Assembly (NCBI GenBank): GCA_963695435.1
Contig: OY968788.1
Location: forward strand, 280,004 to 344,003
Origin: an uncultured bacterium
GTDB taxonomy: Bacteria > Patescibacteriota > Kazan-3B-28
Reading direction: 5' to 3'
Length of the DNA: 64,000 bases
Numbering within the stretch: position 1 is the stretch's first letter; each line of letters begins with the position of its first letter. Positions 25,678-27,781 of the stretch are shown one piece after another. Under the pieces are notes generated by a model. The model searched no databases and had not been told where the DNA came from. It saw nothing but the letters and a program-made list of their open reading frames with translations. The position numbers were made by a program, and so were the translations under genes.

Positions 25678-25923
25678 TTACGCGTAGACTTCAGTACCTT
25701 CTTTGAGTGATTGATTGACCTTTATGCCAACCACATCACCCTTCTTGGCGGAATCGACTGAAGCGTGCTCGATTTGAATCGATTCGATGGTTTCGGTCTT
25801 CTCGTCCTCACCTTTTTTGAAGGTGACTGTGTCTCCGACTTTTAGACCACCGTCCAAATCGATTATGGCAACGCCAATCTTGTCGTAGAAGTGTACGACT
25901 TTACCGATTTTTTTACCTGCCAT
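25678..25923 (-). CDS. Small beta-barrel-like hypothetical protein
   Basis: 81 aa, with VGDTV...GDVVGIKV motifs reminiscent of translation-factor beta-barrel domains. Confidence 0.45.
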   Translation of the reverse strand: MAGKKIGKVVHFYDKIGVAIIDLDGGLKVGDTVTFKKGEDEKTETIESIQIEHASVDSAKKGDVVGIKVNQSLKEGTEVYA

Positions 25924-25968
25924 TTTGCCCTCCTAAATGGTTAGGATATGACGGATATATTATACACC

Positions 25969-25986
25969 AAGGGGAGAATTCCCCTT
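25969..25986. promoter_or_regulatory. Perfect 7-4-7 palindrome AAGGGGA-GAAT-TCCCCTT, an operator-like site
   Basis: It begins 5 nt upstream of a minus-strand TATAAT (25959-25964) that precedes the 25923 start. Confidence 0.35.
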
Positions 25987-26198
25987 CAACCCCATTTTTA
26001 TGTTTGTTTTTTGTTTTCGAACGCAAGCTGGCGTTCAATCCAGCGGTACTTTCTTCTTGGAGAAAGTACCCAAAGCCGTGGCCTGTGTTCGCTCGGTCTG
26101 TTTATTGGATAAATCACCTTACCGCTTAAAGGGCAAACTCGTCGCTTGCCAGCTCCTCAAACATGCCCCCGCGACGGTAATTTATCTCAATTCAATAC

Positions 26199-26215
26199 GA
26201 CCTCGCTCCAATGGC
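26199..26215. repeat. 17-bp direct repeat GACCTCGCTCCAATGGC, copy 1
   Basis: Identical 17-mer recurs at 26829-26845; together they flank a small gene cassette. Confidence 0.6.
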
Positions 26216-26297
26216 CGGAGGGGAAAGCGACAATGGCGGATGGAAGAAGCTGACGTAATTTGCTCGATGGGATTAAAGACAAAAGGGAATAAAAAAG

Positions 26298-26315
26298 CCC
26301 CCATGACCCTGGGGG
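26298..26315 (-). terminator. Intrinsic terminator for the minus-strand ORF 26365..26751
   Basis: ccccca-tgaccc-tggggg stem, with A6 on the plus strand, which is T6 after the stem on the minus strand. Confidence 0.5.
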
Positions 26316-26364
26316 TTGAGCCTATTTGCCCCGGCTCGGTTCCAGCTGATGCTGGTAAGGGGTG

Positions 26365-26751
26365 CTACGAAAGTAGCGGGTCATAGTCCTGTTTCTGGGG
26401 ATCATACCGGCAAAGGACACCAGTTACGAAACCTTGATAGGTATCGTAGGTACATCGGCCATACCAGAGACCGTTAGCACCGCGGTGCAAGTCGAAATGA
26501 ATACTACGGCAGTTTTCGTCTTTGTCAAAAACTAAGCTTTCACCGCTAATGTAATGACCTTCGATCGTGCCGCCAGATGGTCCACCTTCCCAGGTTCCAC
26601 GTAAGAATGTACCAGAATCGTAAAGCTTATGAACTTCGAAGACACACTGGAAGGGCGTTAACGGACTGGGATCCCAGCCAACATAACTGCTGTGTATTCC
26701 AAAGAACAGAAAAGTTTCCGTATAGAGATCCAATTTCCACCTCCTTTGCAT
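26365..26751 (-). CDS. Hypothetical W/G/Y-rich small protein
   Basis: 128 aa. It has its own TTGACA-18-CATAAT promoter and a downstream terminator. There is no SD and no signal peptide. Confidence 0.45.
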   Translation of the reverse strand: MQRRWKLDLYTETFLFFGIHSSYVGWDPSPLTPFQCVFEVHKLYDSGTFLRGTWEGGPSGGTIEGHYISGESLVFDKDENCRSIHFDLHRGANGLWYGRCTYDTYQGFVTGVLCRYDPQKQDYDPLLS

Positions 26752-26788
26752 AGTGCTTGGGGTTCTCTAGAATTTTCAAGGTGGGTAC

Positions 26789-26818
26789 ATTATGTTCTGG
26801 GCAGGGCTGGAATGTCAA
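26789..26818 (-). promoter_or_regulatory. Near-consensus promoter TTGACA-18-CATAAT on the minus strand
   Basis: On the plus strand, tgtcaa at 26813-26818 and attatg at 26789-26794. Confidence 0.45.
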
Positions 26819-26828
26819 ATTGATTACA

Positions 26829-26845
26829 GACCTCGCTCCAATGGC
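26829..26845. repeat. 17-bp direct repeat GACCTCGCTCCAATGGC, copy 2
   Basis: See copy 1. Confidence 0.6.
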
Positions 26846-27002
26846 GGATTGAGAGAGAAAAGGTTGATTGGGATAAGGGTTTTGGGGTATGGTGAGGCGT
26901 TAGGTGGATCCTGTAATTTTTAGGAAATACCCCACCAGCACCTTGAGACTTAAGAGATCTAATTTCTAAAGCCCGCGAGGTGTGACATAAAGGAGAGACT
27001 GG

Positions 27003-27698
27003 ATGAAAACTCTAGCCGCTCTGAAGGCCCTGATGGCTTACTGTACCAACATGGTGTCTTTGAATGCCGACCAGGAAGGTGGCTTCGCCAAGGCAGGAGA
27101 GATATGCAAACAACTCCTCTCTTTAGGCGAAGACGGCTTGGGACGATTACTTCAGCTGATGAACTATGTTAAAGAGCTGACGAAGAGGGAAGATCTTCCT
27201 CCCGAAAATGAGTTCAGGAGGTTCCTGGACAACAACTCCACCACAGGTGAGACTATTGATTGCGATGCCGATCCGTTTATCCCGAATGACTGGAATGACT
27301 GGAAGGCGGGGAAGCATATCAAGGGCGGAATGCTTAAATCGGATTCGCCAATGATCTTTCTGTATATTTCCCCACACCAGAAGGCTAGTGGACACAGCCA
27401 TGGCTATACTCTTCTCAAAGGGTTTATGGATGAGCCTGCTTTCCTAACCCTGAATGCCAATGTGTTGGACCATTGGTTTAAGCACCCAGGGCAGATACCG
27501 AAGGGCATATATAAAGCTCTCCAGTTGGGTAATAAGATAGTTTTTTGGGGAACGATCTATGTTATGGGCGATGGATCATCTGTTGTCCGCTACCTCTATC
27601 TAAGTAGAGTTACCGGTTACCTGGCTTGCAATCACATATATGTCAACTCTTATGTGGTGTCAGATTTCCTGGCTGCTGCCAAGCCAGTAGAGCCATGA
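27003..27698 (+). CDS. Hypothetical protein
   Basis: 231 aa, with an AAGGAG RBS 7 nt before the ATG; no motif recognised. Confidence 0.5.
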   Translation: MKTLAALKALMAYCTNMVSLNADQEGGFAKAGEICKQLLSLGEDGLGRLLQLMNYVKELTKREDLPPENEFRRFLDNNSTTGETIDCDADPFIPNDWNDWKAGKHIKGGMLKSDSPMIFLYISPHQKASGHSHGYTLLKGFMDEPAFLTLNANVLDHWFKHPGQIPKGIYKALQLGNKIVFWGTIYVMGDGSSVVRYLYLSRVTGYLACNHIYVNSYVVSDFLAAAKPVEP

Positions 27699-27720
27699 TA
27701 TCGTGATCTTTGAGTTAATT

Positions 27721-27754
27721 GGGCGGGCACTTCGGTGCTCGCCCTTTTCGTTTT
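27721..27754 (+). terminator. Rho-independent terminator with a UUCG tetraloop
   Basis: gggcgggcac-ttcg-gtgctcgccc, a 10-bp stem with one G-U, followed by TTTTCGTTTTG. Confidence 0.6.
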
Positions 27755-27781
27755 GTATTGTTACTCTCTATTTTCTAATCT

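Follow-up and report, generated by a model that had tools for sequence, protein, structure and literature searches.

An apparently self-expressed orphan gene between two copies of a conserved hairpin arm in an accessory islet of a Kazan-group Patescibacterium

A gene that lies between two perfect direct repeats raises the question of whether gene and repeats entered the genome together as a mobile unit, or whether the repeats belong to something else. The case considered here comes from a Kazan-group Patescibacterium, in a stretch of 64,000 nucleotides that we refer to as the window. The 17-mer GACCTCGCTCCAATGGC has exactly two copies in it, both on the plus strand (26199-26215 and 26829-26845), and a minus-strand open reading frame (ORF) at 26365..26751 is present between them. 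The original prediction for this locus was a small autonomous gene cassette, flanked by perfect 17-bp direct repeats of its own. The repeats are indeed exact and far above chance expectation: given the base composition of the window, approximately 0.005 exact 17-mer direct pairs are expected within 1 kb, and approximately 0.15 anywhere in the window. Their similarity extends past 17 nt, to approximately 32 aligned columns for the window pair and 42 columns for the equivalent pair in L001, one of the related sequences (designated by L numbers) with which the window was compared, and each of the two extended alignments scores above all 300 shuffles. No further copy occurs in the 64-kb window, even when up to three mismatches are allowed.

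The reading frame between the repeats is real, but its product is not the 128-aa protein that had been proposed. Translation appears to start at a TTG codon at 26733, giving a protein of 122 aa, which is also the product with this start in the public databases (P0001). A Shine-Dalgarno (SD) site, of which the prediction had seen none, sits ahead of this start. The near-consensus promoter and the terminator that had been assigned to the gene (the latter at 26298-26315) were both recovered by scans, and no signal peptide is obvious in the 122-aa protein, as had been said. The parts of the gene, in the direction of transcription, are:

26789..26818, minus strand: sigma-70-type promoter TTGACA-18-CATAAT (26818..26789), with 11 of 12 matches in a consensus scan
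26731..26746, minus strand: SD site AAGGAGGTG (26746-26738), a 4-nt gap and the TTG start (26733-26731), conserved in L001
26365..26733, minus strand: coding sequence of a 122-aa orphan protein, predicted to be all-beta
26288..26315, minus strand: intrinsic terminator, a GC-rich stem (26315..26298) followed by a T run

The leader is approximately 45 nt long, and the spacing from SD to start is 6 nt when counted from the GGAGG core (26744-26740). Promoter, leader, SD site and TTG start are approximately 94% identical between the window and L001, compared with approximately 80% for the adjoining coding sequence. With its promoter, leader, SD site, TTG start, 122 codons and terminator, the gene is a complete and self-contained transcription unit, which upholds the prediction on this point.

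Exhaustive HMMER searching of 1.84 billion cluster representatives returned three proteins, namely P0001 itself, P0002 (102 aa) and P0003 (516 aa). The last of these matches in nine stretches; it is a translated tandem repeat, and we rejected it as a homolog because the match was judged to be inflated by the repeats. The only real homolog among about 15 billion proteins is P0002, which is encoded on the syntenic contigs L001-L004 and can be aligned over approximately 60 N-terminal residues only. Over the 62 shared N-terminal codons of P0001 and P0002, dN/dS is 0.16 (dS 1.17), indicating that the ORF is a real coding sequence under purifying selection. Whether the tail of P0002 is a true C-terminal domain was also considered, and this was rejected. 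DNA of the tail is found on the JGI contig L066 as well, where it lies in an unrelated context and carries an in-frame stop, which indicates that it is conserved non-coding DNA; in the window it is broken. Relative to L001, the window has 309 extra nt, in which the C-terminal half of the gene and also the terminator are located; the window DNA that follows the terminator has its homolog in the 3' end of the P0002 gene. Given the stop in L066 and the break in the window, the tail of P0002 is hairpin DNA (see below) that is read through after a 309-nt deletion in L001. By this comparison, P0002 is the product of a truncated gene reading into conserved non-coding DNA.

The 122-aa protein has no match in Pfam, NCBIfam, PHROG or PADLOC, nor among PDB sequences (best E at least 0.19); no relative was found in IMG/VR, and blastn against a phage collection gave no DNA match. 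AlphaFold, run on the single sequence, models the protein as all-beta with nine strands (pLDDT 62, pTM 0.55). Foldseek found nothing significant for this low-confidence model (best PDB E 0.045, TM at most 0.5), and its non-significant matches prominently include lipocalins and small designed barrels. There is some likeness to calycin-type and other up-and-down beta-barrels (lipocalins, FABPs and designed proteins): the model has nine consecutive antiparallel strands in approximately 120 residues, most of the best Foldseek matches of non-negligible probability are lipocalins or small barrels, and the sequence has a G-T-W-x-G motif. However, with Foldseek E values of at least 0.045, the low TM and pLDDT values and no sequence-family match, the likeness is a lead only. 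The product is an orphan, probably all-beta, cytoplasmic protein; a role as a small beta-barrel binder or as an accessory protein of the immunity type is a guess, made with low confidence. For this protein, the database and structure searches suggested along with the prediction have yielded one truncated homolog, no family and no significant fold.

The gene lies in a conserved neighbourhood, in which der, a gene for an 81-aa protein (EF-Tu domain-2-like) and pth follow each other in the same order in relatives; the neighbours in the window are mfd, pth, the 81-aa gene, der, an S11 peptidase gene and aspS. The gap between der and the 81-aa gene has the following sizes and contents:

L007, L008, L009 and L014: 72 bp
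L010: 83 bp
L006: 178 bp
L011: 1.3 kb, with a different 235-aa gene
L001-L004: 1.7 kb, with a 104-aa gene, a DUF433/DUF5615 pair and P0002
Window: 1.86 kb, with the 231-aa and 122-aa genes
L013: 3.2 kb, with three other genes

This variation in size and content, from 72 bp to 3.2 kb with differing genes, supports the proposal that the locus is an accessory islet, and by comparison with relatives the 1.86 kb that separate der from the 81-aa gene form a lineage-specific accessory islet in this Kazan-group Patescibacterium. Besides the 122-aa gene, its features include:

27003..27698, plus strand: second islet gene, encoding a 231-aa protein, with its own terminator at 27721-27744
25924..26018, minus strand: A-rich tract and promoter of the 81-aa gene (TTGAAG, embedded palindrome, TG-TATAAT), at the edge of the islet

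Searches with the 231-aa protein place it in a large family that is confined to Patescibacteria and carries no annotation, and no PADLOC or PHROG family, i.e. none of anti-phage defence or of phages, was matched by either islet protein. The structural model of the 231-aa protein is confident, and no close fold is present in the PDB. The composition of the islet agrees with what had been noted from spot counts: GC is 0.47 in the islet and 0.49 in the cassette, compared with 0.443 in the window, and both islet genes are atypical in codon usage and GC3 relative to mfd, pth, der, the S11 peptidase gene and aspS. The surrounding stretch is also rich in hairpins, as claimed, with eight terminator-like sites compared with 2.9 expected, and in addition one hairpin of approximately 140 nt.

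It is this long hairpin that accounts for the repeats. In the direction of the gene, the elements concerned are:

26822..26852, minus strand: upstream repeat unit U (17-mer core 26829-26845), a solo copy of the hairpin 5' arm and a partial nhmmer match to hairpin model positions 3-43
26231..26244, minus strand: D1, a partial short-form arm copy (..ATCCGCCATTG, then TCG, then a 12-nt CU-rich spacer)
26193..26224, minus strand: downstream repeat unit D (17-mer core 26199-26215), the 5' strand of helices 1 and 2 of the long hairpin
26078..26220, minus strand: extended hairpin element of approximately 140 nt, a candidate structured RNA or single-stranded DNA, recognised by its fold, a covariance model and compensatory changes
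26019..26070, minus strand: two short hairpins after the long one, a perfect hairpin GGTACTTTCT/AGAAAGTACC at 26045-26070 and a second at 26019-26044

Alignment and the hairpin model identify both 17-mers as copies of one arm of a conserved hairpin, the 5' basal arm; D is intact within the hairpin and U stands alone. Together with the short-form D1, the arm-derived pieces in the window number three.

The minimum free energy of the window hairpin is -82.7 kcal/mol on the minus strand (z -5.2). In relatives it is -101.6 for L001 (z -5.7) and -111.2 for L011 (z -7.5), while the stretch folded from L066 reaches only z -2.5. A covariance model seeded with the window, L001, L003 and L066 matches sequences in six lineages, i.e. 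the window, L001-L003, L066, L020 (E 5e-8), L022 (E 2.5e-6) and, weakly, L011. Searching with nhmmer for more hairpins gave no new loci, adding only L004, which overlaps L001 on the same contig. Of the cells in the six-sequence alignment, which is fitted to the model, 88% are paired; compensatory changes affect 25 of 44 pairs compared with 2-9 in slid controls, and none of 500 shuffles reaches the observed value. The seed alignment, which is independent of the model, has seven compensatory pairs compared with 0-2 in slid controls. Helix 2 of the arm, for example, reads GGTC/GACC in the window, GGGAT/ATCCC in L001 and GGAAT/ATTCC in L066, and differences between genomes in the D arm, within the 17-mer, are balanced by changes in the 3' arm of the hairpin. 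The arm sequences diverge widely between hairpin copies, the apical 28 nt are strongly conserved, and the L001 hairpin has an additional internal hairpin of 20 nt. As for the strand, the excess of G.U over A.C in hairpin pairs (27 versus 8) and the better folding of the minus strand (z -5.2 versus -2.7 for the plus strand) favour the gene-sense strand.

Three settings of the hairpin are seen: it lies upstream of the 81-aa gene in the window, L001 and L011, directly after pth and before mfd in L020 and L022, and upstream of a 315-aa ORF in L066. A short hairpin trails the long one wherever the downstream sequence was read (window, L001, L020, L022 and L066), and an A-rich tract does so too where the sequence reaches far enough, L020 stopping at a contig edge. 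No clear promoter was found upstream of the hairpin arm, and in the window a strong terminator separates the candidate hairpin RNA from the cassette promoter. Scanning of the whole window with Rfam 15 gives only three tRNAs, and permissive Rfam scans of 25850-27100, L020, L066 and L002 give nothing relevant; SRP RNA, 6S RNA and a single-strand origin (sso) were considered as identities of the hairpin, and none has support from Rfam. An ORF over the hairpin on the opposite, plus strand (26000..26386), which is a predicted gene of a Logan contig, was rejected because its frames are not conserved among the window, L001 and L066. A search for the pattern ATTCCCGC-N6-GCGGGAAT at exact spacing came back empty, since the real copies carry 5-nt loops. 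The conserved 24-mer of the loop has no match in a viral and phage collection. The arm 17-mer has five matches in that collection, which by a rough estimate rather than a calculation were judged to be at chance level. No description of the element was found in the literature, and we regard it as a conserved structured element outside Rfam, i.e. a new candidate RNA or single-stranded DNA element for the phylum.

Relatives show that arm copies occur both with and without the gene. L001 has a direct repeat at the matching two places, upstream of the promoter and approximately 316 nt downstream, with a different sequence, GCCAT[A/T]GGAGGAGG[A/G]ATGTA. Since the layout of repeat, gene and repeat is also present in the diverged L001, the arrangement is old and predates the split between the window and L001. 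In the gene-free L066 the arms are in tandem, with a window-type copy (GCCGTTGGAGCGAGGTCGT) followed 36 nt on by an L001-type copy that opens the hairpin, and in L011, also gene-free, a solo arm lies directly upstream of the hairpin's own degenerate arm. In these two sequences 31-36 nt separate the solo arm from the hairpin arm downstream of it, without a gene in between, and L020 and L022 have no second copy within six edits of the hairpin arm. The part of the window that is additional to the L066 arrangement can be delimited exactly:

26232..26828, minus strand: 597-nt segment with promoter, gene, terminator and a terminal partial arm copy

Removal of this segment makes the window colinear with L066 (score 95, compared with a shuffle maximum of 29), and the junction is GGAGCGAGGTC/GTC in both (the slash marks the point of joining). 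By this alignment the cassette lies exactly between the arm copies, and L066 retains two arm copies despite having no gene.

Within a genome the copies resemble each other. Copies within six edits of a genome's own D are found only in the two cassette-bearing lineages, and alignment scores of U against D of the same genome are 40 and 37, compared with 33 and 20 between genomes. U and D of the window share an extra C and a TC dinucleotide that are absent from both L001 copies. U of L001 and the solo arm of L066 have matching left flanks, and the core of this U is that of its own D; with this combination of L066-type flank and own-D core, the L001 U looks like a conversion tract. The prediction of a small autonomous cassette flanked by repeats therefore stands for the transcription unit and fails for the repeats as private ends of a recent insertion: they are not specific to the cassette, because D belongs to a hairpin that is present with or without the gene and tandem arms are found in gene-free L066 and L011. 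A look for the 17-mer elsewhere gave no other exact copy in the window, and relatives of the arm copies at L066, L011 and L001. It had been allowed that the 17-mer might be part of a widespread promoter or terminator motif, which would count against a cassette; it does belong to a recurring motif, but a structural one that is neither promoter nor terminator.

The explanation that we prefer, with a probability of about 0.5, is that the genome acquired the cassette through recombination at copies of the hairpin arm, and that these copies became homogenised afterwards. The recombination, site-specific and att-like or else based on short homology, would have let the cassette enter, and exit would be possible in the same way. 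The likeness of U and D within a genome would be due to the entry event or to gene conversion. One end of the inserted piece is derived from the arm, so that closing the cassette into a circle would restore one complete arm unit. Deletion between U and D is predicted to leave the junction flank-ATCCGCCATTGGAGCGAGGTCGTATTGAATTG, loss of 26232-26828 the junction ..GGAGCGAGGTC/GTCGCTTTCC.., and the circular cassette would have the junction ..CTTCTTCCATCCGCCATT/GGAGCGAGGTCTGTAATCAATTTGACA... No recombinase, transposase or integrase was found in the islet or among the Pfam-labelled neighbours on the syntenic contigs. Only two cassette-bearing lineages were found, in one of which the gene is truncated, and D1 is short of 8 nt that a simple attR site would contain.

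Because L066 keeps two arms, the tandem arms may predate the cassette, in which case insertion would not be the source of the repeat. Tandem arms would then be an ancestral part of the hairpin element, the cassette would have come in by illegitimate insertion, and gene conversion would later have equalised U and D. The gene-free tandem arms of L066 and L011, the exact colinearity with L066 once the cassette is removed and the resemblance of the L001 U to a conversion tract all fit such a history, and we regard it as the main rival, possible if on the doubtful side. It requires independent conversions in two lineages, however, and at the gene-free loci the solo arm and the hairpin arm differ by more than six edits in 26, so homogenisation is seen only together with the cassette. 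The arm-derived sequence in which the inserted segment terminates (CTTCTTCCATCCGCCATT) is also not expected from random insertion.

It is unlikely that the repeat units are instead binding sites, such as operators or iteron-like boxes, of a DNA-binding protein acting at the cassette promoter and at the hairpin, kept identical by selection. Their position would suit this role, as U ends 10 nt ahead of the -35 hexamer (26818-26813) and a -35-like TTGAGA or TTGAGC stands at the matching offset after D, and so would the co-variation of U and D within each genome and the enrichment of the core motif GCCRTYGGAG, with four occurrences in the window versus 0.4 expected. On the other hand, the two occurrences outside U and D are dissimilar outside the 10-mer itself (the context was read for one of the two), arm sequences vary widely among hairpin copies, and the islet has no regulator gene. 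The compensation of changes in D by changes in the hairpin 3' arm points to base-pairing over protein recognition.

Much less probable still is an origin of the repeats as target-site duplications of a transposon or a MITE-like element, or as boundaries of an integron-type cassette. A small gene between direct repeats in an accessory region, with a long imperfect palindrome adjoining it, does call such elements to mind. Insertion of transposons and MITEs involves terminal inverted repeats and a short target-site duplication of 2-14 bp. Here the duplication of 17-45 nt is far longer, no terminal inverted repeats of 10 nt or more are present at the cassette ends, and there is no transposase. The attC sites of integrons consist of R''/R' core boxes bracketing an imperfect palindrome of 55-140 nt, and integron cassettes are promoterless and arranged in arrays. 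The cassette shares with them that a small single-gene unit adjoins an imperfect hairpin whose structure is conserved above its sequence, and the strand bias of G.U over A.C suggests a single-stranded form, as in attC. It differs in having its own promoter and terminator, in being single, with no array, attI or nearby IntI, and in its repeats of 17-45 nt rather than 7-nt core sites, and a regular-expression search of 25924-27781 on both strands found no R''/R' boxes (RYYYAAC ... GTTRRRY). With neither inverted repeats nor attC boxes, these origins are largely refuted. That the 17-mers are a chance pair and the ORF is not a gene, for which only the dearth of homologs and of family or PDB matches could speak, is refuted by the expected number of such pairs, the layout kept in L001, the dN/dS value and the conserved promoter, SD site and terminator.

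Recombination at arm copies, the reading that we prefer, has its closest parallel in genomic islands at the ends of tRNA, tmRNA or small-RNA genes, which carry att direct repeats and where the structured gene is regenerated. An example treatment of islands at tRNA and tmRNA gene ends is reportedly that of Williams in Nucleic Acids Research in 2002. As in such islands, accessory DNA lies between direct repeats of 15-50 nt, one repeat is inside an intact structured element (here D) and the other is a partial copy at the far end (here U), and tandem scars can build up. Unlike in those islands, the repeat is the 5' arm of an unannotated hairpin rather than a tRNA 3' end, the insert is only approximately 600 nt and has no integrase, and arm copies are also found in tandem without any insert. 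In its furthest form, the preferred reading would make the hairpin with its arm copies a previously undescribed, hairpin-anchored site of gene capture in Patescibacteria, where small self-expressed cassettes are swapped at the 5' arm of a structured RNA of a new non-coding class, as an analogue of attC or tRNA att sites that lacks an integrase or is served in trans. We consider this whole scenario speculative and rather improbable.

The hairpin itself invites comparison with transcribed intergenic palindromic repeats, such as ERIC/IRU, REP/BIME and Correia/NEMIS elements and the Rickettsia palindromic elements. Like these, it is an imperfect palindrome of 120-165 nt that is intergenic and present in several gene contexts; like ERIC-type palindromes, it can carry internal insertions (the extra 20-nt hairpin of L001), have coding sequence running into it (the tail of P0002 in L001) and form mosaics with short hairpins. 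In contrast to those elements, there is only one copy in the 64-kb window, the apical 28 nt are strongly conserved, and there is no TA duplication and no clear terminal inverted repeat. Compensatory changes are also extensive at orthologous sites, suggesting that the element is a functional structured RNA and not a selfish repeat.

To judge from its signals and its evolution, the self-expressed orphan gene in an accessory hot spot is real, and the parts of the locus that most deserve follow-up are the hairpin family and its possible role as an anchor of recombination. Patescibacteria have tiny genomes, in which recognised mobile elements are few and hardly any non-coding RNAs are annotated. 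If the arm copies are not recombination sites, then what appeared as a cassette with perfect direct repeats would be a long-standing arrangement, passed on vertically and made up around a repeated structural motif, and not a fresh mobile element. If they truly are recombination sites, they would explain how accessory genes are swapped at fixed hot spots without integrases in the inserts.

Synonymous divergence between the window and L001, its diverged syntenic relative, is spread widely over the adjacent genes der, pth, the 81-aa gene and the 122-aa orphan gene of the islet, with dS values of 0.12, 0.36, 0.59 (der) and 1.17 (the 122-aa gene, over 62 shared N-terminal codons). Because dS varies so widely between neighbouring genes, the comparison suggests that recombination between the window and L001 lineages has produced a mosaic. 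The features considered here are as follows.

Window 25678-25923, minus strand: gene for the 81-aa protein, whose product resembles EF-Tu domain 2
Window 25959-25989, minus strand: promoter whose -35 and -10 hexamers enclose a palindrome (TTGAAGGGGAATTCTCCCCTTGG-TG-TATAAT)
Window 26132-26162, minus strand: apical stretch (about 28 nt) of the long hairpin, TGTTTGAGGAGCTGGCAAGCGACGAGTT, with equivalents in L001 and L066
L001 8318-8337: perfect 20-nt mini-hairpin, CCTGCCTACCGGTAGGCAGG
L001 7265-7860: DUF433/DUF5615 gene pair of the islet, toxin-antitoxin-like
L001 6830-6869, L066 1550-1589 and L018 2824-2850: hairpin, GTCATTCCCGCG-N-GGCGGGAATCC

The window and L001 copies of the 81-aa protein share 100% identity, yet the dS of der is 0.59. 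Adjacency of the 81-aa gene to pth is kept across Patescibacteria (loci L009-L065), and relatives of the protein with 44-48% identity are encoded on contigs labelled as DPANN archaea (Woesearchaeota and Nanoarchaeota). The promoter upstream of this gene, together with two short hairpins and an A-rich tract, recurs before a different gene in the related locus L006 (80-112 and 4410-4450), which gives it the appearance of a repeated promoter module.

In the L001 islet, the DUF5615 ORF ends at 71 aa and its frame, judged by eye only, seems to run on past the stop; on the same visual reading the DUF433/DUF5615 pair appears damaged. P0003, a 516-aa protein of about ten near-identical 50-aa repeats, matches residues 41-91 of the 122-aa protein at 44% identity (GTFL..W.......YIS....C...HF.LHRG..G). 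It was discarded as a relative, the match being probably spurious, although the likeness is unusually regular.

The GTCATTCCCGCG-N-GGCGGGAATCC hairpin lies at unrelated positions and orientations in its three loci and has no copy in the window; it resembles the dRS3 repeats of Neisseria (ATTCCC..GGGAAT). The mini-hairpin is inserted within the 3' arm of the long L001 hairpin, and is missing from the L066 (gene-free locus) and window hairpins. The apical stretch shows no differences among the window, L001 and L066 lineages, with flanks that have diverged by 20-25%, and is closed by a covarying stem (GGCA/TGCC or GGCG/CGCC). This stretch appears to be a specific binding site.
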